Shown: positions 48,461 to 64,000 of the stretch, piece by piece | Position numbering within the stretch: the first letter of the stretch is position 1 | Layout: each line of letters begins with the position of its first letter | Source of the DNA: an uncultured Nitrososphaerales archaeon | GTDB taxonomy: Archaea; Thermoproteota; Nitrososphaeria; Nitrososphaerales; Nitrososphaeraceae | NCBI GenBank assembly: GCA_963841565.1 | Contig: CAWJCY010000006.1 | Span: 256,001-320,000 of the forward strand | DNA: 64,000 bases | Reading direction: 5' to 3' | The notes under the pieces: generated by a model | Seen by the model: only the letters and a program-made list of their open reading frames with translations | Database searches by the model: none | Told to the model about the DNA's origin: nothing | Program-made: the position numbers and the translations under genes

Positions 48461-49168
48461 TTAGTAATGCTGAGAATCTAGAATCATCCTAGCAGTTTGA
48501 AAGATTACTATCCACATTTTCCACGTTAATCTTCCTGTGTTAGTATTCTGCCTACTTGGATGATATGACGATAAAAGAACCTTATTACCTTTGATATTGA
48601 ACTTACCGCCGTGTTGAAACTCTATTGCAGTGATGCCGACAAGCTTGCAATATGTTTGAAATGCAATATGTCCAAGAGTGACGATAACCTTGACTGTTTT
48701 ATCAAGCAAATCTAATTCAGACCTTAGATATTGGGAACAGTTCGCTATTTCAAACGAAGTGGGCCGATTGTGAGGGGGTGCACAGCGTACGACTGCTGTA
48801 ATATATGCATCTTTTAATGCAAATCCGTCATTCATGCACCGACTAACAAAAGAGCTAGCAAACCCCGTTTGGAATAATGCTTTGGCAACCCAGTCTCCTG
48901 AGCTATCACCTGTAAACATACGTCCTGTTCTATTTCCACCATGAGCAGCCGGTGCTAGTCCGATAATTAGTAACCTTGCATTGGCATCTCCAAAGCTGGG
49001 AACTGGTCTTGCCCAGTAAAGTTCATTTCCGTACCGCTTTGGTCTGTTTGATGAAATTAATCTTATATGTTCCGATAACCTTGGACATATCTGACACACA
49101 GTTACTCTTCTATTAATTTCAAAAAGCTTCTCCTTTGAATCACAGTTTCCGACATTGGAGTTCATCAA
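48461..49168 (-). CDS. udgB: Uracil-DNA glycosylase family 5 (Fe-S)
   Basis: C..CPRL, GLAPAAHGGNRTGRMFTGD, RCAPP and YHPSRQNTNT motifs. Confidence 0.92.
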   Translation of the reverse strand: MMNSNVGNCDSKEKLFEINRRVTVCQICPRLSEHIRLISSNRPKRYGNELYWARPVPSFGDANARLLIIGLAPAAHGGNRTGRMFTGDSSGDWVAKALFQTGFASSFVSRCMNDGFALKDAYITAVVRCAPPHNRPTSFEIANCSQYLRSELDLLDKTVKVIVTLGHIAFQTYCKLVGITAIEFQHGGKFNIKGNKVLLSSYHPSRQNTNTGRLTWKMWIVIFQTARMILDSQHY

Positions 49169-49454
49169 TGTAGATACATACTCTTTTGGCCTTCAAGATA
49201 ACTTCCTCGGAGGTAAACCCTGTATATTAATATTTTATGCCTAGTTTCAAATTAACGTAATCGCTCGATGCATATTTACATTAAGAAGCCGGTATCAATT
49301 TACTGAATAGGGATCACAACTTGCGTGAGTGCATAGCTTTCTCATTATGATTCTGTTGATAGGTAGGAATTCTTACTAATTTTTGTTGATATACAATCAT
49401 GAAAATCAAAGGATTTGTTTTACTAAATAGTGTTTTTTAAATATCTGGTGATAT

Positions 49455-50885
49455 ATGTACGCATTTGTTAGAGATGCAGGAGGATGTCTGTGGTTGACTG
49501 AAGAATTTTGGCGACGGATAGAAGAATATCGACAATTGGGGTTCGACCCTTTGAGGTGGATTGCTACTGGTTCTAATGAAGTTGATTATTGGAAAATTGA
49601 ACAAATGGTAAATGAAATGAAACGTAGCTCTATAAAGTTGGATACAAATTGGTTCGATGCATTCCATTATGCCGACGGAAAAACGCCTGACCTTACAAGA
49701 AGGGTCTTTTCCCTACGTGATCCTGCAGTTGAAAACGAGGTTGACCTTAAACACGCCATTGCGATGTTCCGGGTACATAAGGAGATAGAGAATGATTCTC
49801 CGTTATTTACTGATATTCTAAATAATTTCTTCAGAAATTTCAGATGTAAAGTTTCCGTCAATAAGAGCACATTTGCAGTTACAGAACATAGAGATGCACA
49901 ATTTGCATTACTTGATTACATTGGTTTGCACAGAGGAGATAAGGTAGGTTTTACCGCCGCTGATAATGCCACTGCGCATGTGATTGATCCTACACTAGAA
50001 CCCGATTCCGAGCTCCATACAGACATTCCCATGACACGATGCATCGACCATTTGAATCTGCTTGGATGCACATCAGGATTTGACCTCTATCCCATATATG
50101 ATTCTCCTCAAGAATCTTCACTAGATATCATCGGAAAAAATCTTGACGCATTCACCTCCAGATATAATCTCAAGATGGATGATTACAGCTCACTTAAAAT
50201 AGGAAGGCTCTTCTTTGGAGCAACTGGGATTGCTAACACCTACAAAGAACTACCTACAAATTATGACCAGATCGAAGAGACCATGCAGATTATTATCACT
50301 AATCCGCTCGGTTCATTGATGGCATTAAGTCTTTACACGCTAGCACAAATTGATGAGAAGATTATGTTTACTTTAGAAAACAAGGGCATCAACAATCAAG
50401 ATCTTGTATCTGCAAAAGATGAATGCATGAAGAATCTCTGCGAACCACATTTTTCACTTGGAAAAATAGTCTCAAAGTATTGTCCCGGGTTTGGGACTCC
50501 GCTTCAGAAGAACGAGAATTTGATAGCCGTTCATCCTTTAGCTAGTGACGGTATACTTGGCTTATGGAAGCTTGCCCGAATTAGTAATTGTCATCTTGTA
50601 GTCAATGACCTTCCAATGATGTTTGAGGAAATTGCAAGACTAGCTTCAAGTGAGGCCCTTGTAATGAACCCAACTGCTGCACTAAATGGATGTCACACCA
50701 TAGTCGCAACCAATGATATTTCAAGTTTAATGCTAGATGAATTGCGAAAACATAACTTTAGAGCAACGGTGATAGGTTTTATTGCCAAAAAGGGAGAGAA
50801 GAATGTTACCTTTGGAGATAACATTAAGGATCACTTTGCTGCGAAAATTGGATTATCAATACTCAATAAAATAGCAGGTAAGTGA
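49455..50885 (+). CDS. SelD-like / PurM-fold protein (probable start TTG at 49494, after GGAGGA)
   Basis: FWRRIEEYRQLGFDPL..ATG N-terminus, IDPT, PIYD.P, DYSSLK.G.L..GAT, TNPLG and NG.H motifs resemble the archaeal SelD-related family. Confidence 0.7.
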   Translation: MYAFVRDAGGCLWLTEEFWRRIEEYRQLGFDPLRWIATGSNEVDYWKIEQMVNEMKRSSIKLDTNWFDAFHYADGKTPDLTRRVFSLRDPAVENEVDLKHAIAMFRVHKEIENDSPLFTDILNNFFRNFRCKVSVNKSTFAVTEHRDAQFALLDYIGLHRGDKVGFTAADNATAHVIDPTLEPDSELHTDIPMTRCIDHLNLLGCTSGFDLYPIYDSPQESSLDIIGKNLDAFTSRYNLKMDDYSSLKIGRLFFGATGIANTYKELPTNYDQIEETMQIIITNPLGSLMALSLYTLAQIDEKIMFTLENKGINNQDLVSAKDECMKNLCEPHFSLGKIVSKYCPGFGTPLQKNENLIAVHPLASDGILGLWKLARISNCHLVVNDLPMMFEEIARLASSEALVMNPTAALNGCHTIVATNDISSLMLDELRKHNFRATVIGFIAKKGEKNVTFGDNIKDHFAAKIGLSILNKIAGK

Positions 50886-50965
50886 ACGATGATGGTGAAT
50901 ATATGACAAAGATTATTAATTACTCGAAGACTTGAAGTCTTATTCGAGTACTGATCGCCGTGTGA

Positions 50966-52072
50966 CTAATCTGAGAACTTGTTTGTCTGATTCTCATCAT
51001 TATCGTTCTTGTCGATTGAAACTTCTCCATCTGGCCTGCTTCTTCCTTCTTTTACCAGAACATATTTGATTCTAACAAATGAAAATAGTATTGCTAATCC
51101 GAGGATTCCAAAGATAACAGCTATGGAAGTAGGGATAGGTATTTCGTATAACTCGGATATTAACATCTTGATGCCTATGAAAAGCAGTATTGCAGCCAGT
51201 CCTGGTTTCAGATAGTAAAATTTGTCTATCATACCCGCGAGAAGAAAGTACAGGCTCCTCAAGCCCAGTATGGCAAATATATTAGAGGTTATCACTAGAA
51301 ATGAGTCAGTTGTAATTGCAAGAATTGCAGGAATAGAATCAAGTGCAAACACCAAATCTGTCATCTCTATGATTACTAGTGCAATTAGCATTGGGGTTGC
51401 ATACATTATACCATCTGAGGCCCGGTGTAGAAACTTGTCTGAGGTATTACCTTTTAATTCGATAGGAATGAACTTTTTCAAAATTCTTACTGCTATGTTC
51501 TTTTCGATTTCTATGTTCTTTTCCTTCTTTGCTACTAGCATTCGTATCGCGGTGAATACCAATAGACCACCAAAGAGGTATATCGTCCAATGAAATGACT
51601 CAAGCAGAGAAATCCCTGCGAGAATGAGGGCTATCCTCAGCCCAATTGCACTTAGTATTCCAAGCATCAATACCTTGTGCTGATAGATGTATGGGATACC
51701 AAGTGATGAAAATATTAGCACAAATACAAACATGTTATCTACGCTTAGTGATTTTTCAATAGCATATCCTGTCAGGAACAAAAGTGATTTGTCATACCCC
51801 ATACTTACAAAAATTAGGCCTGCAAATACGCCCGCAAGCGAAATCCAGATTATAGTCCAACGCAATGCATGTTCGAATGTTTTCTTGCTTCTTTCCTGGT
51901 TGCTTAGAACCTGTACAGTATTGTTGTCTGAAGAGTCCTTATTCTTAGATATCCTCCTCCTTATACTCTCAATCATCCCTAAGTCTATCGCTAAAGCTAT
52001 CCCTACGAATAACCCAAAAGCAATCCACATCAAAGATTGATAGCTACTATCAGCGAATACAAGAGGTTCCAT
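50966..52072 (-). CDS. TerC/Alx-family membrane protein
   Basis: GYAIEKSLSVDNMFVF, IEMTDLVFALDSIPAI and TSNIFAILGLRSLY motifs. Confidence 0.93.
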   Translation of the reverse strand: MEPLVFADSSYQSLMWIAFGLFVGIALAIDLGMIESIRRRISKNKDSSDNNTVQVLSNQERSKKTFEHALRWTIIWISLAGVFAGLIFVSMGYDKSLLFLTGYAIEKSLSVDNMFVFVLIFSSLGIPYIYQHKVLMLGILSAIGLRIALILAGISLLESFHWTIYLFGGLLVFTAIRMLVAKKEKNIEIEKNIAVRILKKFIPIELKGNTSDKFLHRASDGIMYATPMLIALVIIEMTDLVFALDSIPAILAITTDSFLVITSNIFAILGLRSLYFLLAGMIDKFYYLKPGLAAILLFIGIKMLISELYEIPIPTSIAVIFGILGLAILFSFVRIKYVLVKEGRSRPDGEVSIDKNDNDENQTNKFSD

Positions 52073-52377
52073 CGTTTAGACGATAAGAAATTTTTAGTCT
52101 AAGATATATTTGACTTGCAGGTATTCATTGTGTTACTTTGTATTGCCACATGTTCCTGACCTTCGATAATAATAGGATCAAGAAAGCATGACAGTTAAAT
52201 TAGGTAAATGGTTATTCGTAGGTAGCCTAAACTATTTCTATTCTTTTATCTTCTACAGGACGTTAGCTGTATAAGATGGACAAGTCTTGGTAAGTCTGCA
52301 GAGAAATTTCTAATCTCATTAAGAATTGGTTTTTCAACCGGTATTTCATGACATGTTGAGCTGTGTTTACAATTTGT

Positions 52378-52761
52378 TCAAGTCATCATGTAGTTGCTAA
52401 TCTTCATAGGTTCATTGAATTTTATTCGCTGTTTTGGAAAATCGTCAACAATTACGTCAAAGCTCATTTCTCTCAAAGTTTCTGGTACGCCGATCATCAC
52501 TTGGTCGCTTGTAAGAATACCTTGAGCAGCATTTTCGATTTGGTCTTGAGATTTGTACTCCCTCATCTGTTCAATCACATATGCACAAAAAATGGCAAGC
52601 GATTCATTGGCATTGATCCTTAAGTCCATTTCAATTTTCTTTTTGATCGATACTATGACATTGAAAAATATCGATTCCTCTTCCTTGTCAGGAAATTGAA
52701 ATACCCTTATGAATGGAGGAGTATCGATTTCCCCTCGAACCATGACTTTAATATCTATCAT
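52378..52761 (-). CDS. Stand-alone urease gamma-subunit-like protein
   Basis: INANESLAIFCAYVIEQMRE...ILTSDQVMIGVPETL..M.F......KQRIKFNEPM matches the UreA pattern LN..EA.A.I...I.E.AR...L..DDVM.GV..M...PI; ATGA overlap with the upstream gene. Confidence 0.7.
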   Translation of the reverse strand: MIDIKVMVRGEIDTPPFIRVFQFPDKEEESIFFNVIVSIKKKIEMDLRINANESLAIFCAYVIEQMREYKSQDQIENAAQGILTSDQVMIGVPETLREMSFDVIVDDFPKQRIKFNEPMKISNYMMT

Positions 52762-53882
52762 CGATTGTTTCTTTTTGGGGGCGCTGCTTTAGGACCGTTC
52801 CCAAAATCATATGTATGTCCCTTCCCACGATAGAATTTTGGCCTTACAGGATTTCCTTCCATTTCCCCTTTCTTTGTGAGTGAAAGCCCTGCCAAAAGTT
52901 CGACAATTAGTCGATTTGCCAAGCCTGAAGTGATTCCTCCGTTGTAAGAGTTGACGTCGCTTACATCATAATTGGGTGCTACTTCGACCAAATCGAATGC
53001 AAACTTGTCCGGATCAAAAGAGGTGGACAATAATCGCATCAATCTCATACCCTCTCTTGAAGTCAGCCCATTGGGCTCAGGCTCGCCAGTACCTGGCGCG
53101 TAGGCGGGGTCAAACGTATCGATATCCCAACTTATGTATACCGCATCAACATTATCATTTGCCCTATCGGCCGCTTCCTTAGCGATCGGGTCAATTCCCA
53201 TTTCTTCTACGTCCAGCATTGTAAACCACTGGAAATCCTGATCAGCCATCCATTTATAGAGATCAGGTCCAGGCCAATATCCTCTTGGGCCAATTAGGGT
53301 ATAATTTTTGCCCTTTAGACAACCTAACTCCATAATCCTTCTTATATGCGCCCCATGATCATATTTGAATCCGCAAAGTCCTTGAGGAGCGCAATCCGCG
53401 TGGGTGTCGATATGGATCATACCAATGTTTTTGTACTTCTTGGCAAACGCTCTCACGTTAGCGAATGTAATTGAGTGATCTCCACCTAACATTACAGGGA
53501 TCCCATCGATATCGAGAACCTCCTTGACCTTATCTGTCATTCTTCTGTGTGATTCAATGACGTCGCCAGGAGACACTACAACGTCACCATAGTCTACAGT
53601 TTTAAATACACCAAAAGGGTCCACTCCTGTTTCAATGTTGAAATGTTCATAAGGGGGAGATGGCACAGTTGAAGCTGCTCGGATTGCGCGTGGCCCATAT
53701 CTCGCACCAGGACGTATGGTTGTTCCAAAATCAAATGGTTCTCCTATTATAGCTACATCTGGTTTTATCTTTTCTAATTCCTGACGGGACCTGAGCCAAG
53801 GCAACTTCAGAAAAGTTGGTATACCAACAAAAATCGGCTCATCATTACCTTTGTACGAATCCCCATAGAATTCCATTCCCAT
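52758..53882 (-). CDS. Ureohydrolase (agmatinase/arginase superfamily), substrate unknown
   Basis: PFD.GT..RPGARYGPRAIR, GGDHSIT, DTHAD, DHG, SWDIDTFDP, PGTGEPEP and DLVEVAP motifs. Confidence 0.9.
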   Translation of the reverse strand: MGMEFYGDSYKGNDEPIFVGIPTFLKLPWLRSRQELEKIKPDVAIIGEPFDFGTTIRPGARYGPRAIRAASTVPSPPYEHFNIETGVDPFGVFKTVDYGDVVVSPGDVIESHRRMTDKVKEVLDIDGIPVMLGGDHSITFANVRAFAKKYKNIGMIHIDTHADCAPQGLCGFKYDHGAHIRRIMELGCLKGKNYTLIGPRGYWPGPDLYKWMADQDFQWFTMLDVEEMGIDPIAKEAADRANDNVDAVYISWDIDTFDPAYAPGTGEPEPNGLTSREGMRLMRLLSTSFDPDKFAFDLVEVAPNYDVSDVNSYNGGITSGLANRLIVELLAGLSLTKKGEMEGNPVRPKFYRGKGHTYDFGNGPKAAPPKRNNR

Positions 53883-53900
53883 CTTCTAATCGCTAAATAT

Positions 53901-53930
53901 TAGGACACGTACAATGTTTTTAAGCATTTC
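53901..53930 (-). promoter_or_regulatory. Ureohydrolase operon promoter sharing a motif with glnA
   Basis: Minus strand reads GAAATGCTTAAAAACATTGTACGTGTCCTA. Confidence 0.5.
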
Positions 53931-54028
53931 TAAGTAGTTTACGAATCTCTTTAACTCGCTGATCCGACTACATAAAGTCATATGTTACTGGCTTTGGGAT
54001 CAGATACTTACTGATAATGAGAATTAAT

Positions 54029-54070
54029 GGTATGGTTAGGGTATGGTCAGGGTATGGTCAGTGTCAGTGT
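54029..54070. repeat. 11-bp tandem repeat x3
   Basis: GGTATGGTTAG GGTATGGTCAG GGTATGGTCAG followed by TGTCAGTGT. Confidence 0.8.
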
Positions 54071-54331
54071 ATACTAATGGTCTCGTTAAGTGATCTACAT
54101 TTTATACATTGAATTCATTGATATTAAGCTAAACCAACCATGTAGAATGTGATACAAAGACCACAATCCTCTAGTAGTTAGCTATCCATAAAATGAAGAT
54201 ATGAAGAGATTTGTCGAATGATATACTAACGTAATCTACGCATTGTATAATACTATACTGATGACCATGCATTTTAAAATGAATGATAGATCAATACTTT
54301 TTTATAGTTACTCCCCTTATAGGAAAATGCG

Positions 54332-54586
54332 ATGAATGCGGTTAGAAATGAAAGTGATGTTCAAGCTCGAGCAGTAGGAGCGATTGAGACACTGTATGGA
54401 AAAGGCATTTCGGATTTAAAGCTAAGATCACTATTCTCTCTTCCTAATGAGCAAAAAAGAGAGGAATGGGATGCACAGACAACTTTTATGTTAAATAACC
54501 TTCAATATGTGGTCGATCTTACGATTAGGGAACAAGATGGTATCATAACTAATGCTAGGCTGATAGACGTAATGAAACCTCTTTAA
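54332..54586 (+). CDS. Small hypothetical protein
   Basis: 84-aa ORF preceded by a TTTTTATAG TATA-like box; alpha/beta composition. Confidence 0.65.
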   Translation: MNAVRNESDVQARAVGAIETLYGKGISDLKLRSLFSLPNEQKREEWDAQTTFMLNNLQYVVDLTIREQDGIITNARLIDVMKPL

Positions 54587-54840
54587 CCTACTGGCATTTC
54601 GTTCTCAAGGATTCATTTTCGTAGGCTCCTAGCCAAGAAAGTCATCGCTGATGACTGATACGAATCCCATTTTAATGGCCAAAAATTTTTTTGGGTCGCC
54701 ACAAGTCTAGAAATGTTTGTTTTAAGAATGCATAAATTCGTAATATACATTATTCAATCGTACTTTATTATACCCTAATATTGGTAGTATACATATACTG
54801 AGGAAGTATTTTTATATATAATGTCTATAACCATAACACT

Positions 54841-55201
54841 ATGAAAGAATTGGATGTCTTTATCCGTTCAGAGCATCGTTCGAAAGTGACAGATATACTC
54901 CAAAAGAATAGAGCAGGCATCAGTTTTTTCGAGGTCCTTGGTACAGGGAGTACACCAAGTGCAGCTCCGGAAGTAGTACATTCATACAGAACTGGTAGAA
55001 CTACTGTCCCTGAATTCGTAACAAGGCTTTTGGTTATGACAGTCGTACCTGATTCTTCTGCAAAAAAAAATAGTCGACGAGCTCGTAAATAGTTTCGGTA
55101 AAACATCAGAGCCTTATAGAGTGCTCTTTGTGAAGGATGTCACTGAAGCTTATCAATTTGGTACGAAGGTAGTCGGGGAGGAAATCCTGACACCTAAATG
55201 A
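54841..55201 (+). CDS. P-II family nitrogen signalling protein; +1 frameshift in the A9 tract at 55062-55070
   Basis: MKELDVFIR...GISFFEVLGTG...YRTG...PEFVTR; removing one A gives AKKIVDELVNSFG...LFVKDVTEAYQFGTKVVGEEIL*. Confidence 0.8.
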
Positions 55202-55299
55202 CCCGAACCGTTGCAAAATCTAACCTCCTGTATAGGCGTTACTTTGTCGCTTCCACAACCTATGAACTATGAGCAGTTGTGTGGCTAATGGTTTAATGG

Positions 55300-55357
55300 G
55301 AATTCACTGATTCCACTACTCTAGACACTCAGAATTCACTGGTTCCACTATTTGACA
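55300..55357. repeat. Imperfect direct repeat pair, 32-bp period
   Basis: GAATTCACTGATTCCACTACTCTAGACA and GAATTCACTGGTTCCACTATTTGACA. Confidence 0.75.
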
Positions 55358-55430
55358 GGATTAATTGAAAAACCGGTCCGGTTCGCATAAATGTACGAGA
55401 TTAGAATGATGCAAACCGCCGAATCTCAAA

Positions 55431-57135
55431 TCAATAATAGTGATGCATAGGCCTTTGTTGTTTTCCTAGTCGATCGAAATAGTGATCATGCTTCTTGTCT
55501 CCTCCTGGATGTGAATGTTCTACACCATCAGCGTGAGTATGAGTCTGCATTTTTGGTTTAGCCATTAAAACATCATCTACGCGCAATAACATGCACGTTA
55601 CCTCCACAGCTGTTTTAAGGACTTGTTCTTTTACTATCGATGGTTCTATTACTGACGAAATGATATTCTCCACCTTTCTGCTTTTTGAATCAATTCCATA
55701 CCACCTAATCTTGCTGTTAGCAGGCAAGTGTTTAGATCTCAATTGTACTATCGTGTTGACGGTATCCATTCCGGCATTTCTAGCAAGCGTGGTTGGTATT
55801 TCCTCTAATGCTTCAGCAAATTTCTGAAGTACGAGCTGAACACGGCCTTTAATTAGTCTAGATCTATCTCTAATGATGGCTGCGACCTTCATTTCAGTAG
55901 CACCAGCTCCTCCAACAATTCGAGGTGATAGAATATAGTCTCTTAGAACAGCAAATCCGTCCAATGCTGAACGGTGGTACTCATCAAGTACTCTTTTTGA
56001 ATTTGCCCTCAACAAGAGAGTCACTGATTTAGGATTTTTACATTCATCGATAAAGACCATCTTGTCATCACCAACCAATTTTTCATACACTTTCCCTGCA
56101 TACCCCAAGTTATTAGATGGTATTGGGCCATTCAAATCTTTAACAACCTTTGCACCTGTTGATCTCTCCAACCACAACATATCATTTTCTTTAACTCTAT
56201 GAAGGGTGAGAATATCTGCTCTTGATAATCGCTGTTGAACTATTTTGTTTATTCCCTTCTGAGAAATCACGATATTCGCACCAGACTCTATAATATTCTG
56301 TACCTTTATTTCGAGTAGTTCGTATTCAGATTTGTAGTATTTCTCTAGCTGACCACATGATGATATATTCAATTCAGAATTAGTCCGAGTCCTGCTCCTA
56401 TCGAGTTCTTCGTTAGTTAAAAGTATCTTGGCGTTTTCAATCTGTTTGACCATGGTTGAAGCTGCAAAGGTCTTGTCAATCACCGTGCCTCTTATTAGGG
56501 TAGTATCAGAAGGGTTACCCAGTTTTTCTTCAATTTTGATATCGTCTATATCAATAGTCTTGTTTCTCAAATCTGAGATGCTCCAAACGGCCTCAACTAC
56601 TAGATCAGCGAGCACTATTATTTTCTCTAGCAACTATGCCTGAGATAGACCTAGTTTGAAGACAAGTCTCTGCCAACTTACTCATTACTTCTCTGTGTAA
56701 ACTGGCTGAGGATACTGAAATTTGACCGAGAGTTTGAAGTGAGATTTCTAAGCCTTTGAGATACCCATCAATTATAACTGATGGAGCGATTCCATAGAAC
56801 AACAGTTCTTGTGCCTTCGACAATAATTCTCCCGACAAGATGACAACAGATGTAGTACCGTCTCCTACCTCATTGTCTACTGCATTGGCCGCCTCTATCA
56901 GAATTTTTGCTGCAGGATGTTCAACATCAAGTTTTCGCAATATCGCTGAACCATCCTTTGTCACCGTGATCTCTCCCATAATATCGATATACACTTTTTC
57001 CAATCCACAAGGACCAAATGAATTTTTAATCAGGTTTGAGATCAATGTAGCTGCCAAGAGATTATACTGACGACTCTTGCCCTCTTGACTTCTGCCAAAA
57101 CCATCACCGAATAGCTGCTCCTTGCGTGGATCCAT
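55431..57135 (-). CDS. Divergent group II chaperonin (thermosome-like) with His-rich C-terminal tail; +1 frameshift near 56634
   Basis: SFGPCG.EK, VTKDG, VEHPAAK, EVGDGTTS, GGAGATE, LARNAG.D and IEP..VK motifs; tail THTHADGVEHSHPGGDKKHDHY...MHHYY. Confidence 0.88.
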
Positions 57136-57438
57136 GTATCCTCCACGTGTCTGATTTGAACTATATAAGGCTTGTCTGATGAACGAATGAGAACGCCATC
57201 ACAGATAAATTGATTGGGATGCTCACTCAATAGATAATCGAAAATTTTGAATTTCAGTCACTTACTATTCAGATTATGATAAATTAAAACATAGAAATCC
57301 AATAATTGTTTTTTATTGACTGATTACATGTAGTATACGAATGTTCGTTCACTCTCATATCCGTAATTTACATTATTTGGCCTAAAATTTATATAATTTC
57401 ACGTTTAGAATTCAATGTGCAAATCGGTAGCATTGTTT

Positions 57439-57457
57439 CTACTAGTCTGACTAGTAG
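57439..57457. promoter_or_regulatory. Perfect palindrome between the symporter TATA box and start
   Basis: CTACTAGTC-T-GACTAGTAG; TATA-like TTTATATAA at about 57388-57396; GGAGGT at 57485 before the TTG. Confidence 0.55.
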
Positions 57458-57496
57458 TAACGTACCTTTTGTAAAAATAGCTCTGGAGGTATCCTT

Positions 57497-59011
57497 TTGG
57501 TAGACGGATATGCGATTGGGGTCATCGCATTTTTAGCGCTTTCTGTTATTGTTGGGACTCTAACCTCGAAGCTTGTAAAGAAAAGCAGCAAAAGGTTTAT
57601 GATCGCTGGCAAAAGTCTGCCGCTCTTCTTCGTGGGGACTATGCTCGCTGCTCAATCTATCGATGGTAATTCTTCACTTGGAAACGTATCCCTTGTTTAT
57701 CAATTTGGATTCTGGTCAGGAGCCGCAATTCCAATTGGACTTGCTGCGTGCCTCATCTTAACGGCAATATTCTATGCAAAAAAACTTAATAAAATGTCAA
57801 TGCTTACTTTGCCCGATTTTTACTTTAGGAGGTTTGGAAATGCAAGTGAAGGCATTTCCGGAATCCTTATGATGATAAGCTTCGTAGTATTAGTAGCAGG
57901 CAATTTTGCGGCAACTGGATACATCTTGTCTGTCGTTTTACATATTGACTTCATATGGGCAATGCTGATTGGAGCGATAATCGTGTTGATTTATACCTAC
58001 GCAGGGGGTCTATTCTCCTCAGCTTATACAGACATTTTTCAAATATATTTAGCAATAGCTGCATTTTGGGCTGCATTTCTATTCTTCGCAGGAGGCTTTG
58101 CGGGCGTCAGCTTTGATACTATTCTTGGCAGCGCTCCACCTGGGTACTTGGATTTATCTGGACTAACAGATATGGGCAATGGTGCCCTTGTTAATTGGGC
58201 TGGAATCATGGCTTTGGCATTAGGAGACATTGTAGCATTGGATTTCATGGAAAGGGTGTTCGCAGCTAGAGACGGTAAAACCGCAAGAAGAGGAGCCTTC
58301 ATGGGAGCAGGACTAACAATATTAACTATCGTTCCCACAAGCATGATGGGAATTGTTGCATTATACTTTTTGCCAGATTTGACTGATCCCTATACTGCTT
58401 ATCCTGATCTAGCGATTAACCATGTTCCATTCGTTATTGGAGTAGCCCTACTCATGGGAGTCCTTGGTGCCTCGATGTCAACTGCAAATGGCGGTTTGCT
58501 CGCCATTTCCAGTGTCATGTCAAGAAACATTGTTCAAAGAACTATCTTGAAAAGGATACTGAAACGCCCAGGATTGGGAGATAAGAAACTACTGATGGTA
58601 ACACGTATTTTCACTATCCCAATGATGATAGCTGCGTTTGTACTTGCATACCTGATCCCGCAGCCCGGTGTTTATCTTATCCTAGCATTTGATATCGTAT
58701 TTGCAGGTGCTTGGGCTCCACTAACATTTGGTCTATTCTGGAAGAAGGCCAATACTCCTGCAACATTGGCTTCACTCATTATTGGATCATCCTTGAGGCT
58801 ATTGCTCTTCTTCGTCATTCCTGTCGAATTGGCTGGTCTTGATACATTAATACCTCCAGTAATATCTGTTATTATCTTTGTTGTAGTAGCTTTAGCGACC
58901 CAAAAGAAATATCCTGGCAGGTATGGAGTCGTTGACTATGTTCCACCAGAAGAAGATGTATTAAATGGAGAAGACTTGAAGGGATTCGTCGCACCAAATG
59001 CAGGGAAATGA
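57497..59011 (+). CDS. Sodium:solute symporter (SSS) family transporter
   Basis: F.IAGKSLP, TLPDFY.RRFG, YT.AGGL.S.AYTD..Q, ASMSTANG and GLFWKKAN motifs; about 13 TM. Confidence 0.93.
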   Translation: MVDGYAIGVIAFLALSVIVGTLTSKLVKKSSKRFMIAGKSLPLFFVGTMLAAQSIDGNSSLGNVSLVYQFGFWSGAAIPIGLAACLILTAIFYAKKLNKMSMLTLPDFYFRRFGNASEGISGILMMISFVVLVAGNFAATGYILSVVLHIDFIWAMLIGAIIVLIYTYAGGLFSSAYTDIFQIYLAIAAFWAAFLFFAGGFAGVSFDTILGSAPPGYLDLSGLTDMGNGALVNWAGIMALALGDIVALDFMERVFAARDGKTARRGAFMGAGLTILTIVPTSMMGIVALYFLPDLTDPYTAYPDLAINHVPFVIGVALLMGVLGASMSTANGGLLAISSVMSRNIVQRTILKRILKRPGLGDKKLLMVTRIFTIPMMIAAFVLAYLIPQPGVYLILAFDIVFAGAWAPLTFGLFWKKANTPATLASLIIGSSLRLLLFFVIPVELAGLDTLIPPVISVIIFVVVALATQKKYPGRYGVVDYVPPEEDVLNGEDLKGFVAPNAGK

Positions 59012-59036
59012 CTTTGTGAAGAAATGCCCTAATACA

Positions 59037-59983
59037 AAGGGAATGGTACCAGACACGATCATAATAGTGGATCTAAAATATGGGTTTATCTCGATAATCC
59101 AAACGAGATTCCTGTTCTATGTTGCCGGATTTAGCCTGAAGAATTGGTGAAGATATAAGACGTGCGATGACCCGGAAGAATGAACCCTATATACCATTTT
59201 CCTGTCAATGTGCATAGCGATCTAGATCTTCGTTCGCACTCCTTGGGTATTCAAATGTACCGTCTGGCAATATATCAAAATGCAATTCAATATGTTCATA
59301 ACAATAATTATTTTTACATTTTGAACACAGAGTAGTTGGTTTTTTAAAACAATTAACAATACCACATATCCCCTCCTTTTGAGACCTATGAGTCCATTCA
59401 TTTATCTCTGTTTGAGTTGGGTCGTCATTAAGGCGAATGAACAAATCTACCTCAACTTTAGGTGGTTCAGACATACCTCATCTGAATTCGACTTGTCTGC
59501 GGTAGCAGTATTTTAATTTTGCATGCAAACAAATGCAGACGACCAATAAGCAATGTGTCAGGCGTATTGGTCGCCTACCCCCGTAACCCTTGATTGACAG
59601 TGGGTCTTTATGAGTGATTTAAACGTCCAAACTGCCAGTAGCGTATTGTACTACACATTATAAAACAATATTAGAAATAGGTAGGTGACAATTAATAGGA
59701 GCATGGTTTGAGGGTATCAACTACCAACTCTAGTAAAACCATTCAGTTTTTCGAAAAGCTGCATTATTGAGTCACGCGCTACACTCATTATTGATGTGTG
59801 TATGCTTGAGAAATCTGCTTTGAGTTGTCGGGGGTCCAAATTACAAAGAACATGTAAAGGACTTTGTTAAGAATTATCCTACAGCCAAGGGAAACGTACC
59901 AGACACAATCGTAATAGTAGACACCAAATATTGGTATATTTTAGATATTCCGAAAGATACCACTATTCCATGTTTCCAGATCT
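59037..59983. repeat. Two diverged ~100-bp direct copies (about 59037-59132 and 59887-59983), remnants of paralogous membrane-protein genes on the minus strand
   Basis: AAGGGAATGGTACCAGACACGATCATAATAGTGGA... vs AAGGGAAACGTACCAGACACAATCGTAATAGTAGA...; minus strand STIMIVSGTIPFVLG vs STITIVSGTFPLAVG. Confidence 0.7.
59205..59474 (-). CDS. Small AN1/B-box-like zinc-finger protein
   Basis: C-x4-C-x7-C-x2-C-x4-C-x2-H-x3-H. Confidence 0.65.
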   Translation of the reverse strand: MSEPPKVEVDLFIRLNDDPTQTEINEWTHRSQKEGICGIVNCFKKPTTLCSKCKNNYCYEHIELHFDILPDGTFEYPRSANEDLDRYAH

Positions 59984-60319
59984 GTAGTACCACGGAAGAC
60001 ATAAACAGCAAATATCCACAAATATGAATCCCACAAACCATGCCCATGTCAACGCGACAAATACCAGGGTGTAAGATTATGATATGAAATGCAGACAACT
60101 ATAACATTTATGAAGCCAGTTTGGTCGCCTGCACTGCCTTTTTGATATCAATTGGTAGAGTATACTCCAAACACAGTCGGATCTTAGATATCGGATAAGG
60201 GTTACTTCCACCGTTATTACTACCACCTTGTATTAACACAAATAGTTTCAAAGTCTCCAATTCTGATATTATCATAGTATTATCTCCAAACTATTGATAA
60301 GCGATAGCATCATTATAGT

Positions 60320-60514
60320 GTGTCAGAAAAAAATATGGGTAAATGGAAATGCCTGTGGTGTTCTAAAGTGTTGGAAGGAGAATCCCTTATGGATCTAATT
60401 GAGGTTTCTCGAAAGGAGGAAGGCGAACAGCATGTCCATGGCTGGGAAAATATTACTTTGGAAGGAGAAGTAATGGCAACTGCCATACTAAAGACTAAAC
60501 TATCTGCGGTTTAG
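60320..60514 (+). CDS. Small putative Zn-binding protein
   Basis: WKCLWC...HVH; GTG start. Confidence 0.5.
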   Translation: MSEKNMGKWKCLWCSKVLEGESLMDLIEVSRKEEGEQHVHGWENITLEGEVMATAILKTKLSAV

Positions 60515-60561
60515 TTTTACTTTATTTTAGTATCCTGTTTACTAGTAAGTTCTCATAGAGT

Positions 60562-62175
60562 TTATTTCTTATTCGTATCTATTGGCAAACTAAATGTGAA
60601 TGTTGCTCCTACATCTCCGTCATAATTGTTATTCTCAGCCCATATACTGCCACCATGTTTTTCGATTATGCTCTTGGAAATAAATAGGCCCAATCCAGTA
60701 CCTCCTCCATCAGATTTTGTACCGAATTTTGTGAAAAGTTTTGGCAAAATGTCTGGATGTATGCCAGTCCCTGTATCTTTTATTTTGACAATAATCTTGT
60801 TGCTGCTCTCTTTTTGTTCAACAGTAACTTTGATGCGACCATCATTTGTGAACTTGAAAGCATTGCTTATCAAGTTATTAACAACTTGACAGAGCCTGCT
60901 TCTGTCTGCTACTATAATCGTAGCACCATCTCCTTGACATTCATAATGTATAGCTAGGTTGCTTCTATTGCCGTTCTTGATGCTTTGACGATACTCATTC
61001 AATATTTCTATGATCATCTTATCAAGGTCAAATTTTTCTTTCTTTAAAATAAGAGATCCGCTTTCAATTTTTGTAGCATCTAATATATCTTCTGTTAGTT
61101 GCATTAATCTTTTTGAGTTTCTAAGTATAATATCTAGCAACAAGTCCTCTTGCTGCACGGTTATTGGGATGCTTCTACTCTTTCCTTCTCTTACGGAGTG
61201 AAGATATTCAGTTAGTCCAAGTATTGGCTGTATAGGTGTTCGAAGCTCATGTGCTGCCACATTTATGAATTCATCTTTCAATCGATCTTTATGTTTTAAT
61301 TCTTCATTTGCATATTCTAATTCCTTTGTCAATTCATTTTGTTTTTTAATATAGCTCTTCAGAGATTCTACCATTGAATTAAATGAGCGACCTAAAACGG
61401 AGAGCTCATCACTTCCTGTGCCTTTAACTGAAACATCTAAATTACCTTTACCTATTTCAGACGTCGCGGCAGTTAGAGCAAATACAGGTTTTAGAATTCT
61501 CATAACAAGATATAGTACTACAGCAGCAACTGCAATGTTTAAAACTGCAAATATCCCTTGCAACATCATTGAATTCTGTGAACTGACTCTTGCGTACTCT
61601 CCTAATTCCGTAACTAACACATTAGACGAATTCAGTAATGATGATGCGCTAGTTTCAGTTGTTGCTTGTAGAGCTTCAACAGTTGGCGGTGTTATTTCAG
61701 CATTATTGATCCTTCCATTAGGTTGAATTATAGTATTTGTTAAGATCGTTTTTAGATAAACCCATTCTTGATAGATTTTATTCCAGTCTTCCAAAAATTT
61801 TGATGGCAGGGGTCTTAGATCTATATCTGATATCATTCCCCCTTGTTTTAATTTCAAGATGTTTGATTCTAGTTGGTTCATTGCGGAGCTAATTTTAGAC
61901 AGGTCAGTGCCATTTCCTACTTGGGAAAAATATTCTGAGAGCTCTAACATAAGGTTAGAAGTGAGAAATCGATTCTTACCTGCAATATTTATCGAGTTTC
62001 CTAGATGTGTATCTTGTGATTCGTAATAAGAAAGTATACTGAAGCTACTGATAACAAAACCAATTTGAATTACAACCAAAATCCCAATTTTTAAGCCTAT
62101 TTTAGAACGTATTGATCCTATTAGATTAGAACCGTTCTTCAATACTGATCGCCATTGCTGGTCAAGTGTTATCAT
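60562..62175 (-). CDS. Membrane sensor histidine kinase (NarX/PilJ-like sensor, HAMP, HisKA, HATPase)
   Basis: TM, SINIAGKNRF, TM, HAMP (DELSVLGRSFNSM), AAHELRTP, NLISNAFKFT, DTGTGI and GTGLGL. Confidence 0.93.
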   Translation of the reverse strand: MITLDQQWRSVLKNGSNLIGSIRSKIGLKIGILVVIQIGFVISSFSILSYYESQDTHLGNSINIAGKNRFLTSNLMLELSEYFSQVGNGTDLSKISSAMNQLESNILKLKQGGMISDIDLRPLPSKFLEDWNKIYQEWVYLKTILTNTIIQPNGRINNAEITPPTVEALQATTETSASSLLNSSNVLVTELGEYARVSSQNSMMLQGIFAVLNIAVAAVVLYLVMRILKPVFALTAATSEIGKGNLDVSVKGTGSDELSVLGRSFNSMVESLKSYIKKQNELTKELEYANEELKHKDRLKDEFINVAAHELRTPIQPILGLTEYLHSVREGKSRSIPITVQQEDLLLDIILRNSKRLMQLTEDILDATKIESGSLILKKEKFDLDKMIIEILNEYRQSIKNGNRSNLAIHYECQGDGATIIVADRSRLCQVVNNLISNAFKFTNDGRIKVTVEQKESSNKIIVKIKDTGTGIHPDILPKLFTKFGTKSDGGGTGLGLFISKSIIEKHGGSIWAENNNYDGDVGATFTFSLPIDTNKK

Positions 62176-62654
62176 TATATCCGACTTTGAGGTATTTATC
62201 CTTTAATCTCCATATTAAGTGAAATTGGAATTACTTTCAGAATATTTATCATGATAGCAGGTTACTATTTGATGCAATAACTGACAGCTTTTTCAACCAA
62301 ACAGGACGTTAACTGGACCGCGTAGAACATCGAAGTGAGCAAGGCTTTGCAAATCAAGTCTTACTGGCTTATGTTGACGTGAAACCCTATACCAGTAGGT
62401 TTAAGAAATTAATCGCGAAAACGATTTCGCTGAAATTACTGACTCGTTCGTTGACTTTGAATATCTTCTAATTTCTCTTCCATTGCATTCACATATTGTA
62501 CTGAAGGACCATTTTCAAGTAAAACAAACTATGATCTTCTAGCTTCTTAGTATTATTTGCTATTTTGACTAGCCAAATATTAGACTGTTACAAGGTGAAT
62601 CAAACTTATCTTCTTGATACTGAGATTTAAATATGGATGGTGCCCATAGTAACT

Positions 62655-62727
62655 TGAGTAGAATTGGTATTGGGGTAAGGCCTCCAGATCTGTAATCCTC
62701 CTCAGTGTTCGATTCCTGACTACTCAC
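62655..62727 (+). other. Degenerate tRNA-like element
   Basis: 7-bp acceptor-like stem TGAGTAG/CTACTCA spanning 72 nt; T-arm TCAG(T)G-TTCGATT-CCTGA; D and anticodon stems poorly paired. Confidence 0.35.
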
Positions 62728-63203
62728 TTCTTTTGCCAGTACACTTATTGCCTTGACCTAGTTTACTAATTTGAGTAATCTTTATTGTTTCAAGGAAAAT
62801 CTGTAATAGTAGGTTTCCCATGAGTCCCCATACAGCAGCTCAGTTGTAGTTATAGTTCACGGACTAAAGCTCATATACAAGATTTGACCTCGTCTGTTTG
62901 TTTAGCTATATGGGCAATAAAATTTGCCAATTTGGCCATAAATCACGCTCGTTTAGTCATACTCAGGACAAACTTATTATGGTATCAACTCTTTTATGGA
63001 ACCCTATTTGAGCAAGGTAAATCTATAGGTAGTAACTTACATTCATGCTTTCGATCAGATTTCATAATACCTAAGCTATTTTCATCTTATTTAATTAAAT
63101 CAAATTCCAAAATAGTAATGCTGCTTTCAAGCGTCCAATCCCTGACAAAGGCAGCAAATGGCAAAATGAAGCACAACTAGAAAATCCCTCAGCATTAGCA
63201 TCC

Positions 63204-63243
63204 GGGGCCACCTGGTCTTGCAGAATTTCTTCCAGGTGGCCCC
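63204..63243. repeat. GC-rich perfect 12-bp inverted repeat (hairpin)
   Basis: GGGGCCACCTGG-N16-CCAGGTGGCCCC. Confidence 0.9.
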
Positions 63244-63379
63244 TTCATGATTGACCTTACCTAAAAATTAACTGGTTGACATATAAGAGGTAGAACAGTT
63301 AGGAAGAGATTAGGTTAACAATTCATAGCTATCTGTTGCGGTACCGCCGTAACTTAGATTGATTGTTCCAAAACCAAGA

Positions 63380-63973
63380 GAGAGAATAGTATCGAATCAA
63401 AAGTCAAATTCGCACCCATCATTTTTCTAAAATTTAGATATTAGTCTAAGGTTGTTTTAGCTTCCGGGGTACAGAAAGTCAGGTATTGCGGTCTTTCCTT
63501 CTTATATACTATAATCTGGTAAATACCTTATTTAGGTATCTCAAATGGGTGCTTGAACTCAAGATTTAGCAGACCCCTAATCCTTATACCCGAGCTTGCC
63601 AAAAGAAGGATAATAGCCCTATCTCTTTTTGAATGAGCAGAAGCAAATAGCTCGTCAATCTCCTCCCTTGTGTAAAGCCTATCCTCTACTACTGAGTAAA
63701 ATTCACCAATTCATTTCAAAGAAATGCTTTACTGCTACAAGGCGTACTCTAATAGTGACAGGAGCCATTTTTACTTCTCTGAAGTAAAATAAATTACATA
63801 ATCAGTGATCTTGTCCTACAATTTCTTTGCGGAATGTTCAATTAGAAGCTGCTCAAATTCAGTAAATGTCATGCATTTCATGAATTGATTTAGGTTTTGC
63901 AAACAGGCTTGTTGGTCTGTGGAGACTTTAAGGAATTATGAAATTGACCTAAAGCTACTTGTTATTGTTGCAT
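63380..63973 (-). pseudogene. Tyrosine recombinase/integrase pseudogene
   Basis: Fragments FHNSLKSPQT...NQFMK...KKL*DKITDYV and DRLYTREEI...RDRAIILLLASSGIRI...K*GIYQIIVYK...YLTFCTPEAKTTLD*YL; in-frame stops; catalytic C-terminus not found. Confidence 0.8.
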
Positions 63974-64000
63974 TAACTATACAATAATAGGAACAGAGAT

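Follow-up and report, generated by a model that had tools for sequence, protein, structure and literature searches.

A urease-associated gene module of ammonia-oxidizing archaea with an arginase-family enzyme, a urease-gamma-like protein and a His-tailed thermosome

Introduction

GbuA, GpuA and proclavaminate amidinohydrolase each free urea from a guanidino compound, and we know of no UreA-like, chaperonin or SSS partner for any of these enzymes. The helpers of the cyanobacterial GdmH are HypA/B. Urease is a nickel enzyme, and in Helicobacter pylori the His-rich co-chaperonin HspA carries a tail that is a presumed metal store. Nickel-dependent enzymes with an arginase fold exist, namely guanidinase and metformin hydrolase; in the available excerpts of the sources the latter (MfmAB/MetCaCb) is a two-gene heteromer, and the cyanobacterial GdmH needs co-expressed nickel-loading chaperones.

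Nitrification in soils and oceans is driven by ammonia-oxidizing archaea (AOA), whose range of organic nitrogen substrates is still under study. In the excerpted AOA literature, urea as an alternative substrate is treated as established. Genes such as those described here are named agmatinase and DUR3-type urea transporter in AOA papers (excerpts of PMC11131427, PMC6790972, PMC10753782 and PMC6742649), where either of two SSS types may be meant, and one paper, in its available part, noted a cluster of SSS and 'agmatinase' genes within a single soil clade. The available part of Palatinszky et al. reports no guanidine-degradation genes in AOA, which counts against the reading preferred below. 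A chaperonin (Hsp60 homolog) has been described in AOA urease loci (Abby et al. 2018, PMC5797428). No description of the pair formed by the arginase-family and UreA-like genes, or of a His-tailed thermosome, was found in the literature.

Here, we analyzed a region of the window, i.e., the whole 64,000-nt stretch of DNA from an uncultured Nitrososphaerales archaeon. We put at about an even chance that this region is a conserved AOA module that supplies urease with urea from a guanidino- or amidino-type compound, with candidate functions in uptake, hydrolysis and metal loading. At present the parts of this module go by unconnected names: "agmatinase", "urease gamma", "DUR3" and "thermosome".

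Results and Discussion

The Gene Set Is Retained in Two AOA Families

The gene of an arginase-family ureohydrolase of 374 aa (ARG; 52758-53882, minus strand) is followed on the same strand by that of a urease-gamma-like protein of 127 aa (UA; 52378-52761), whose start overlaps the ARG stop (ATGA), as read directly in the sequence. Divergent from ARG lies the gene of an 84-aa protein, s84 (54332-54586, plus strand), and beyond it a frameshifted P-II-like gene (54841-55201, plus strand), a His-tailed group II chaperonin, i.e., a thermosome paralog (55431-57135, minus strand), and, divergent from the chaperonin, an SSS-family transporter of 504 aa (57497-59011, plus strand; Pfam SSF, 98.2 bits). 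A TerC/Alx-family membrane protein is encoded at 50966-52072 (minus strand), 305 nt downstream of UA. An earlier note on this DNA had listed seven genes, all of which were confirmed at their positions; its list was nevertheless only partly right, since the chaperonin is split through an error of the assembly, a frameshift interrupts the P-II-like gene, and TerC and P-II are lineage-specific rather than core components. The s84 gene was absent from that list.

The synteny analysis was based on 40 loci of relatives that were selected by UA, several of them truncated by contig ends. Within this UA-selected set, ARG adjoins UA in 40 of 40 loci, an SSS transporter (504-550 aa) is present in 39, a thermosome-family paralog in 33 and s84 in 29; the 4-nt overlap between the ARG stop and the UA start was observed in 23 of 39 loci. 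The gene set is retained in two AOA families although its order and orientation have been rearranged. The proposed linkage of ureohydrolase, UreA-like protein, His-tailed thermosome and SSS transporter has thus passed the synteny check, and because these core genes are linked across two AOA families, the objection that they might be unlinked in relatives fails. In family f5 the order is ARG-UA-NiCoT-ureA-ureB-ureC, all on one strand.

ARG Is a Distinct Paralog That Lacks the Guanidinase Tryptophan

ARG belongs to the arginase family (Pfam PF00491, 266.1 bits with a cut-off of 22, E 4.9e-79). Its best NCBIfam names are agmatinase models, though the scores are below the cut-offs (156.6 vs 174.3 for TIGR01230 and 203.6 vs 302 for NF002564). 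The two other arginase-family paralogs of the genome are likewise under the agmatinase cut-offs, and ARG is a third, distinct paralog with 28-33% identity to them. Among AOA families ARG is 76-98% identical (median identity 94% and 82%), and the mean column identity of a 39-sequence alignment is 87%. Residues H136, D159, H161, D163, D253, D255, H176, E267 and E300 are invariant in the 39 sequences; among them are all six binuclear-metal ligands (two His and four Asp), which align with the ligands of 9fek, and both catalytic residues, a His and a Glu. ARG also has a GTGEPEP motif and a conserved C-terminal extension.

The solved structures nearest to ARG are GbuA (3nio, 2e-52), GdmH (7esr) and the N. 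inopinata guanidinase (9fek). With GdmH (Synechocystis; 7esr/7oi1) and the N. inopinata enzyme, ARG shares the arginase fold, the same six ligands and similar phmmer scores (2.5e-48 and 7e-48), and in an ammonia oxidiser the urea produced by a guanidinase would feed the nitrifier, as we propose for ARG. Of the residues that have been proposed to act in guanidine hydrolysis, T105, H222, W313 and E344 (N. inopinata numbering), the Thr, His and Glu are kept in ARG, whereas W313 is replaced by Glu267 of the GTGEPEP motif, a residue that is invariant in AOA ARG and in the haloarchaeal homolog, so that the four-residue GdmH-type signature is incomplete. Because ARG is without the guanidinase Trp, a GdmH-like guanidinase activity is not established for it.

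GbuA, GpuA and proclavaminate amidinohydrolase are the best-scoring solved relatives of ARG (2e-52 to 5e-44), but have Thr at the position of Glu267 and lack the C-terminal extension. The SpeB agmatinases, members of the same family whose name ARG bears in the excerpted AOA genome papers, are matched more weakly (1wog, 1.3e-35; 7lol, 2.2e-32), so that ARG is closer to the GbuA, GdmH, PAH and GpuA structures than to those of SpeB. Metformin hydrolase is matched by the ARG query at 2.3e-34 (8snf) and resembles the module in being a two-gene system; however, both of its subunits are of the arginase family, whereas the second gene of the module has a urease-gamma fold and encodes a putative partner.

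UA Has a Urease-Gamma Fold

UA matches Pfam Urease_gamma (39.9 bits, cut-off 23.9) but not the NCBIfam ureA equivalog NF009712 (40.3 vs a cut-off of 123). In the window it lies outside any ureABC operon, coupled to ARG, and the true ureA (150.7 bits) is found with ureB and ureC on another contig (C12), apart from the module. The AF2 model of UA (pLDDT 93.6) has an extra N-terminal beta hairpin, each of its best 17 PDB matches in Foldseek is to a urease, at the gamma subunit or domain, and with separate urease gamma chains a TMt of 0.78-0.83 was obtained. The absence of any conserved His or Cys from the UA alignment counts against the preferred reading, and the predicted 1:1 ARG:UA complex (own alignments) scored 0.00, which speaks neither for nor against binding. 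Since no UA-like gene is present at the loci of the haloarchaeal ARG homologs, and UA is absent from one f5 locus, it is not essential to the enzyme family.

The Thermosome Paralog Has a His-Rich Tail

The chaperonin appears in the window as two ORFs (56605-57135 and 55431-56633), which cover positions 1-134 and 141-490 of the Cpn60_TCP1 profile; the thermosome equivalog cut-offs were not reached by either piece, as scored in this split form. Three public runs, each of a different study (X1, X2 and X5), have contigs with one base fewer at 56610, and the ortholog of a same-genus relative (G400) is a single 567-aa frame, to which the pieces of the window are 85-88% identical in two frames; the split is therefore an assembly error. 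The gene was also considered as a pseudogene, a candidate ruled out by the public contigs of the three runs, which restore the frame.

The His-rich tail seen in the earlier note is real, with 8 His in the last 45 residues, and 28 of 29 full-length module thermosomes carry such a tail (7-10 His in the last 45 residues). It recalls the tail of HspA as a presumed metal store. Counting that of the module thermosome, the genome has four chaperonin genes. As with the Hsp60 of the AOA urease locus, a member of the chaperonin family is here associated with a locus related to urea, but the urease-operon chaperonin lies between ureC and ureE, has 516-532 aa and is a different protein: identity of the module thermosome with the Hsp60 of Abby et al. 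was ruled out by about 25% sequence identity and the absence of His from the tail there.

Nickel Is the Likeliest Metal

The gene downstream of UA differs among lineages. TerC scores 339.9 bits against TIGR03718 (cut-off 246.4) and is thus a TerC/Alx member, but at this position it occurs only in the window and G400, i.e., in one genus; elsewhere, a NiCoT-like protein (f9) or NicO is encoded downstream. The NiCoT-like gene directly follows UA in 17 loci, with a gap of -1 to 24 nt, and a Ni/Co-type permease is next in the operon in most lineages. In a loop of the NiCoT-like protein, 10 of 19 sequences carry an HxHxH(D/E)DGxxHxH stretch similar to the thermosome tail. NicO and NikR are present in some relatives' loci, and in family f5 ARG has its own His-rich tail in 3 of 3 proteins; no tailed thermosome was found in the f5 genomes with His-tailed ARG. 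An Rfam scan of 49000-60500, with E values admitted up to 1, was negative, and hence no Mn riboswitch was found upstream of TerC. The argument for manganese is weak, because TerC is limited to one genus and sits at the site of a Ni/Co permease in other lineages. The suggested link to nickel has gained from the NiCoT-like permease in the operon, from NikR in some loci and from the His-tail of the f5 ARG, all of them in relatives; the genome of the window, 88% complete, has TerC as the permease and yielded neither NicO nor f9, which counts against the preferred reading. The nickel permease and NikR could also serve urease alone, an observation that counts against it as well.

In the excerpted GdmH literature, the nickel-loading helpers are required, and the metal genes around ARG parallel them, though those of the module (His-tailed thermosome, UreA-like protein and permease) are not HypA/HypB-like. 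A tentative extension, which we hold to be possible rather than probable, is that many AOA and some haloarchaea own a hitherto overlooked ureohydrolase system that depends on nickel and acts on a guanidino or amidino compound from outside the cell, and for which a urease-gamma-fold partner has been recruited and the His-tailed group II chaperonin acts as a dedicated metallochaperonin. If this were true, it would mean a new substrate class for archaeal nitrification and a new route for the metal loading of enzymes. As accessory proteins of arginase-fold enzymes, a thermosome with a His-rich tail and a UreA-like partner would each be of a new kind.

The Module Accompanies Urease

A search of 401 class genomes found orthologs of ARG (at least 76% identity) in 118, about 30%, and almost only alongside urease. 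In family f2, 71 genomes have both ARG and ureC, 1 has ARG only, 32 have ureC only and 119 have neither; the corresponding counts for family f1 are 37, 5, 29 and 7, related genomes being non-independent samples in both. In one of the five f1 genomes with ARG and no ureC (G238), ureA and ureB lie at the end of a contig. In G400 and G347, which are ARG-positive and 99% complete, no urease alpha was found above the cut-off, and this counts against the preferred reading. Roughly a third of the urease-positive f1/f2 genomes are without the module. The module is not free-standing but accompanies urease genome by genome, often in the urease neighbourhood. The hydrolase is, in keeping with the earlier note, distinct from the ubiquitous agmatinase paralog, since the 283 ARG-negative genomes still have other arginase-family genes.

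The AOA urease operon has its own chaperonin (about 25% identity to that of the module, 0 His) and its own long SSS, to which the module SSS is only about 22% identical; this value rules out that the two SSS transporters are the same. The module SSS was found in 0 of 5 urease-positive, ARG-negative genomes, and chaperonin matches in these five never extend to the tail, which is reached in both positive controls (G400 and G106). It is ARG rather than urease that the module SSS and the tailed thermosome track.

These distributions bear on the first alternative, which we consider rather unlikely, namely that ARG is an ordinary SpeB agmatinase of the polyamine pathway whose urea is recycled by urease, the SSS being a DUR3-type urea importer, the thermosome and nickel permease serving urease maturation and UA being a spare or regulatory gamma subunit. 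It is the current annotation in the excerpted AOA papers cited above and the simpler reading, it agrees with the best NCBIfam names of ARG, with the fold of UA and with the known nickel content of urease, and it also explains why the module co-occurs with urease, often adjoining it. However, ARG is under both agmatinase cut-offs, is nearer to GbuA and GdmH than to the SpeB structures, and is an extra, patchily distributed and urease-linked paralog missing from 283 of 401 genomes where other arginase-family genes remain. The urease operon already has a chaperonin and an SSS, and those of the module follow ARG instead; in addition, UA is translationally coupled to ARG while the true ureA is elsewhere, and in f5 the His-rich tail is fused onto ARG itself.

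ARG Is Paired with an SSS Transporter in Two Archaeal Phyla

The haloarchaeal homologs are 54% identical to ARG and share the GTGEPEP motif. In two haloarchaeal loci the homolog lies beside an SSS transporter 37% identical to that of the window, and in a third there is an SSS fragment by an IS element, with a urease operon adjoining. That the ARG-SSS pairing is kept in two archaeal phyla is accounted for most simply if both proteins have one substrate in common. This observation argues against a further alternative, an unlikely one in our estimate, in which the enzyme system is the same but its substrate is made inside the cell, e.g., a guanidino by-product that is detoxified or salvaged, and the SSS imports urea or another solute. 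The kept catalytic site and the urease link would hold under this explanation too, the cargo of the SSS is not fixed by the data, and the extreme conservation of ARG would suit a fixed intracellular metabolite; but about 70% of the class genomes searched, and roughly one in three of the urease-positive f1/f2 genomes, lack the module, which would not be expected of a housekeeping salvage step.

According to the preferred reading of a module that supplies urease with urea, the 504-aa SSS permease would import the compound, and ARG, translationally coupled with UA and possibly in contact with it, would hydrolyse it to urea, its catalytic residues being conserved; urease, encoded elsewhere in the genome, would then convert urea to ammonia. 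The binuclear site of ARG may be loaded with metal, most probably nickel, via His-rich sequences, either the tail of the thermosome paralog or, in one family, the tail of ARG itself, and the metal permease encoded just downstream (of the Ni/Co type in most lineages, TerC here) may take part. P-II, Usp, s84, f6 and TPR proteins would be variable accessories. The presence of ARG in about 30% of the class genomes, tied to urease and with its own transporter and metal genes, points to a specific, strongly selected urea source, which is currently hidden under the 'agmatinase' label; naming the substrate would alter models of nitrogen supply to nitrifiers.

The P-II-Like Gene Is Frameshifted

The P-II-like gene is frameshifted at an A9 run (55062-55070), with frame 1 over 54841-55092 and frame 2 over 55064-55201. 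The identical A9, with no gap, is present in the contigs of the three independent runs X1, X2 and X5, and the frameshift is genuine in this species. The intact G400 ortholog, which is without the A9 run, matches Pfam P-II (PF00543) with 38.9 bits (cut-off 25), whereas the window copy has no Pfam match and no intact frame. Among the loci mapped, P-II lies beside the module only in the genus of the window (the window and G400), G286 and G171; frameshifted here and lineage-restricted, it is not supported as part of the core. That the genes have no common function, their adjacency being due to chance or inherited order in a decaying locus, draws on two frameshifts within 2 kb in the window, one of them, that of P-II, real, but is highly improbable, as the frameshift in the thermosome stems from the assembly, which also splits other essential genes (OTCase, a PALP/ACT enzyme and its own ureC), two families have retained the gene set despite rearrangement, and ARG is under very strong constraint.

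s84 and the Intergenic Regions

No Pfam or NCBIfam match was found for s84, which is conserved in relatives (64% mean column identity in its alignment). Its model (pLDDT 88) consists of one helix and four strands, for which a Foldseek search with E up to 0.001 was negative and VIA-align gave generic cystatin/PepSY/NTF2-like matches only (Z up to 9.2).

The two divergent intergenic regions, between ARG and s84 (53883-54331) and between the chaperonin and SSS (57136-57496), presumably hold promoters, as judged by position only. The 9-mers common to the intergenic regions are short, scattered matches only. A direct repeat with 11-nt spacing was observed at 54038/54049 in the former region and a palindrome at 57439-57457 in the latter. 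Small shares of the 64,000-nt stretch are contained in four RNA runs.

Gene content of the locus and its broken reading frames

The gene content listed for this locus in the earlier note was largely confirmed by an ORF listing and by profile scans of the window, which is C6:256001-320000 of a genome (G000) that amounts to 2.05 Mb in 13 contigs and is 88% complete; close homologs are named as Nitrososphaeraceae. The minus strand carries the genes of a TerC/Alx protein (50966-52072; TIGR03718, 339.9 bits), of a UreA-like (urease-gamma-like) protein of 127 aa, here UA (52378-52761; Pfam Urease_gamma, 39.9 bits), and of an arginase-family protein of 374 aa, here ARG (52758-53882; Pfam E 4.9e-79), and the window sequence shows that ARG ends and UA begins in a common ATGA. 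On the plus strand lie a small gene that was absent from the first list (s84, encoding 84 aa; 54332-54586) and an SSS transporter gene (504 aa; 57497-59011; Pfam SSF, 98.2 bits). A group II chaperonin (thermosome) gene was found in two pieces on the minus strand (56605-57135 and 55431-56633), both recognized by Cpn60_TCP1, and 8 of the 45 residues in the C-terminal tail of its product are His. A P-II-like gene (54841-55201, plus strand) breaks in a run of nine A residues (A9, 55062-55070) and continues in another frame. The divergent ARG/s84 intergenic region contains a 13-nt direct repeat with 11-nt spacing (54038-54061), a possible regulator site. Elsewhere in the window, a mannosyl-3-phosphoglycerate synthase gene (35012-36196; Pfam E 2.7e-164) indicates that this soil archaeon has a compatible-solute pathway.

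In G400, a relative of the same genus, both the chaperonin (567 aa) and the P-II-like protein are intact, and each aligns to the window in two frames. Four public runs, each from a different study, provided contigs for a comparison over 54700-57300. One base at 56610 was left out in all three runs that cover this position (X1, X2 and X5), and therefore the split of the chaperonin gene is an error of this assembly. The same three runs, from three studies, span the A9 run without a gap, so that the frameshift of the P-II-like gene is real in the DNA of the species; G400 reads A5-G-A2 at this position and keeps the frame. The P-II-like gene is either a pseudogene fixed in the species or reliant on slippage at A9. 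Indel errors are evidently frequent in this assembly, since further genes are also split into adjacent frames: the N and C domains of an aspartate/ornithine carbamoyltransferase (two ORFs, 41818-42769), a PALP enzyme and its ACT domain (30814-32053), and, on contig C12 of the same genome (locus L076), its own ureC (325 + 247 aa) and ureD.

A linked core of genes in two families

UA was searched for in 401 genomes of the class, and up to 20 kb around a full-length UA match was mapped in 40 genomes, 20 from the family of the window (f1) and 20 from another family of ammonia-oxidising archaea (AOA; f2), with the ORFs clustered by BLASTP. ARG was present in 40/40 loci (split in one, and with the UA ORF uncalled in one), a short SSS gene in 39, a thermosome-family gene in 33 and s84 in 29; because several loci run into contig ends, genes missing from these counts are not taken as absences. 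In 23 of 39 loci, counting the window, the stop codon of ARG and the start of UA overlap by 4 nt, and in three by 1 nt; in the others the two genes are 0-41 nt apart. In 17 loci UA is followed on the same strand, at -1 to 24 nt, by the gene of a 250-aa membrane protein with a His-rich loop (f9), which gave no Pfam match and whose HX4DH-like motif we take to be reminiscent of Ni/Co permeases. A NicO-family gene occupies the same strand after UA in four loci, and the thermosome gene is a convergent neighbour in 11. Other recurring neighbours encode a TPR protein, a 173-aa protein (f6), Usp, a ParB-like protein and, in some loci, NikR, and ureABC and ureEFGD very often lie near the module. In G000, f6, a further module gene (f18) and Usp are located just past the window end (C6:320044-321955), with about 5 kb between them and the SSS gene; this stretch, which encodes a histidine kinase, is missing from G400. 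Within the window (59011-64000) it has the HAMP/HisKA/HATPase kinase at 60562-62175 and a small ORF that gave a weak transposase-like match.

The earlier note had proposed a module for the uptake and hydrolysis of guanidino or amidino compounds, with its own maturation and regulation. This proposal was borne out in part. The linkage of its core genes held across both families, and the core consists of ARG, UA, SSS and the His-tailed thermosome, plus a metal permease. The P-II and TerC genes turned out to be local features: among the loci mapped, P-II-like genes were found in the window, G400, G286 and G171 only, and TerC downstream of UA in the window and G400 only. The TerC gene of the window adjoins a gene for a SelD-related putative sulfur-metabolism protein (49455-50885; NF038049, 246.9 bits against a cut-off of 250), a pairing common to the window and G400 only.

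The module is distinct from the core urease system

The urease operon of G000, on contig C12, comprises ureA, ureB, ureC, a 527-aa chaperonin gene, ureE, ureF, ureG and ureD. This chaperonin is the 'Hsp60 homolog' noted in urease loci by Abby et al. 2018 (PMC5797428). Urease operons of f1 carry such a chaperonin of their own between ureC and ureE, of 516-532 aa and without a His tail (G000:C12:41300-61200, i.e., L076, and L077, L080, L082 and L083); unlike the module thermosome, to which it is ~25% identical, the urease-operon chaperonin has a tail without His. Of the four chaperonin genes in G000, two are housekeeping, one belongs to the urease operon and one to the module. Likewise, the long SSS proteins (660-920 aa) of urease operons in the same family differ from the module SSS (~22% identical); at the corresponding region of G000 (L076) only a 77-aa fragment was detected, possibly broken by indels. 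The module SSS was found at E 1e-10 in none of five urease-positive, ARG-negative genomes (all 98-99% complete), and in the same five no chaperonin match exceeded 292 bits or passed residue 366 of 400, whereas the module thermosomes of G400 and G106, which served as controls, scored 777 and 424 bits and aligned to residue 400. The module is distinct from the core urease system.

ARG orthologs (at least 76% identity) occur in 118 of the 401 genomes, in families f1, f2 and f5 (another AOA family) only, and a urease alpha domain in 196. When genomes were matched between the two tables, f2 gave 71 with both ARG and ureC, one with ARG only, 32 with ureC only and 119 with neither, and f1 gave 37, 5, 29 and 7, respectively; no statistic is attached to these counts because related genomes are not independent. 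The counts with both genes include the unpublished G365 (f1) and G283 (f2), without which they are 36 and 70. As to the five f1 exceptions with ARG and no ureC, in G238 ureA and ureB lie at the end of a contig, two are 88% complete, and G400 and G347, though fragmented, are 99% complete. The module is an accessory of urease-positive AOA and most likely makes urea.

ARG as a ureohydrolase of its own subfamily

For one soil clade, Sun et al. 2024 (PMC11131427) note that the SSS transporter clusters with an 'agmatinase (SpeB)' and that the gene is expressed. Other papers (PMC6790972, PMC10753782, PMC6742649) regard the AOA agmatinase as ubiquitous and as part of polyamine metabolism, and the SSS genes as DUR3 urea transporters, one of them stating that the function awaits experimental proof. 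This conventional reading, an agmatinase plus a urea transporter, is weakened but keeps some probability. ARG is 28-33% identical to two other arginase-family genes of G000, none of the three paralogs reaches the NCBI agmatinase cut-offs, and ARG-negative genomes retain one to three other arginase-family genes. The best solved-structure matches of ARG were guanidinobutyrase (3nio, 2e-52), the guanidine hydrolase GdmH (7esr, 2.5e-48) and the N. inopinata guanidinase (9fek, 7e-48), followed by proclavaminate amidinohydrolase (PAH) and guanidinopropionase, and then by agmatinases at 1e-35 and weaker.

The conservation of ARG is extreme, with a median identity to the window protein of 94% in f1 and 82% in f2; the corresponding values are 40/42% for UA, 75/66% for SSS, ~52/50% for the thermosome and 55/45% for s84. 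In the alignment its six metal ligands and its catalytic His and Glu are invariant. ARG keeps three of the four residues listed for guanidine hydrolysis by Palatinszky et al. 2024; in place of the fourth, Trp, it has Glu267, an invariant residue of its GTGEPEP motif, where guanidinobutyrase GbuA and PAH have Thr. Since the ligands and catalytic residues are invariant but the Trp is not kept, ARG is an active-looking ureohydrolase of a separate subfamily and, by the four-residue criterion, not a GdmH-type guanidinase. A carboxylate near the scissile group suggests a substrate that is small or doubly basic. Palatinszky et al. 2024 report that guanidine-degradation genes were not found in AOA, and none of the AOA genus and species names searched for occurs in the main text of their paper. 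In the openly accessible literature, we found neither the ARG/UreA-like pair nor the His-tailed thermosome described.

When 1.84 billion representatives were searched for ARG homologs, identity fell steeply after the AOA clade: the next cluster, 54% identical to ARG, comes from haloarchaea (Natronorubrum, Natrarchaeobius), is named 'agmatinase family protein' and shares the GTGEPEP motif, and the others were at most 48% identical. Three of five matching plasmid records were examined (L101-L103). The ARG homolog adjoins a urease operon in Natronorubrum bangense, with an SSS fragment beside an IS200/IS605 element; it adjoins an SSS gene in Halalkalicoccus jeotgali; and on pNG700 of Haloarcula marismortui it lies near SSS, Usp, cpn60-family and formamidase genes, the last two adjoining each other. 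The SSS proteins of the last two loci are 37% identical to that of the window over the full length, and no UA-like sequence was detected at E 1e-3 in the three loci. Because the haloarchaeal loci, an independent lineage, pair the ARG homolog with SSS and UA was not found there, the older core is ARG with this SSS, and UA, the tailed thermosome and the permease are AOA additions.

Metal, chaperonin and small proteins

Among full-length thermosomes of module loci, 28 of 29 have 7-10 His in a conserved pattern within the last 45 residues, the remaining one being a housekeeping paralog in one locus, and a similar HxHxH(D/E)DGxxHxH stretch is found in the loop of f9 in 10/19 sequences. The C-termini of group II chaperonins face the cavity. 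In f5, the three ARG proteins examined (G174, G192 and G266; L084, L085 and L104) have a His-rich C-terminal tail of their own, and a search of their genomes yielded no tailed thermosome; in G266, ARG, UA, the NiCoT-like f9, ureA, ureB and ureC are consecutive on one strand. That the His-rich segment sits either on the chaperonin or on ARG is the strongest indication in this analysis that the client of the chaperonin may be ARG. Nickel is suggested as the metal by NicO, by NikR and by published Ni-dependent precedents of the arginase fold. However, the urease next door needs nickel too, and in G000 TerC stands in place of a Ni permease, NicO and f9 not having been found in this 88%-complete genome.

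UA itself is unlikely to bind the metal, because no His or Cys is conserved in its alignment. Ureases made up all of the 17 best PDB matches of its model (pLDDT 93.6), which aligned with their gamma subunit or domain; TMt values of 0.78-0.83 were obtained with separate urease gamma chains, relative to which UA has an additional N-terminal beta hairpin. The model of s84 is a helix on a four-stranded sheet, for which the structural matches were generic only.
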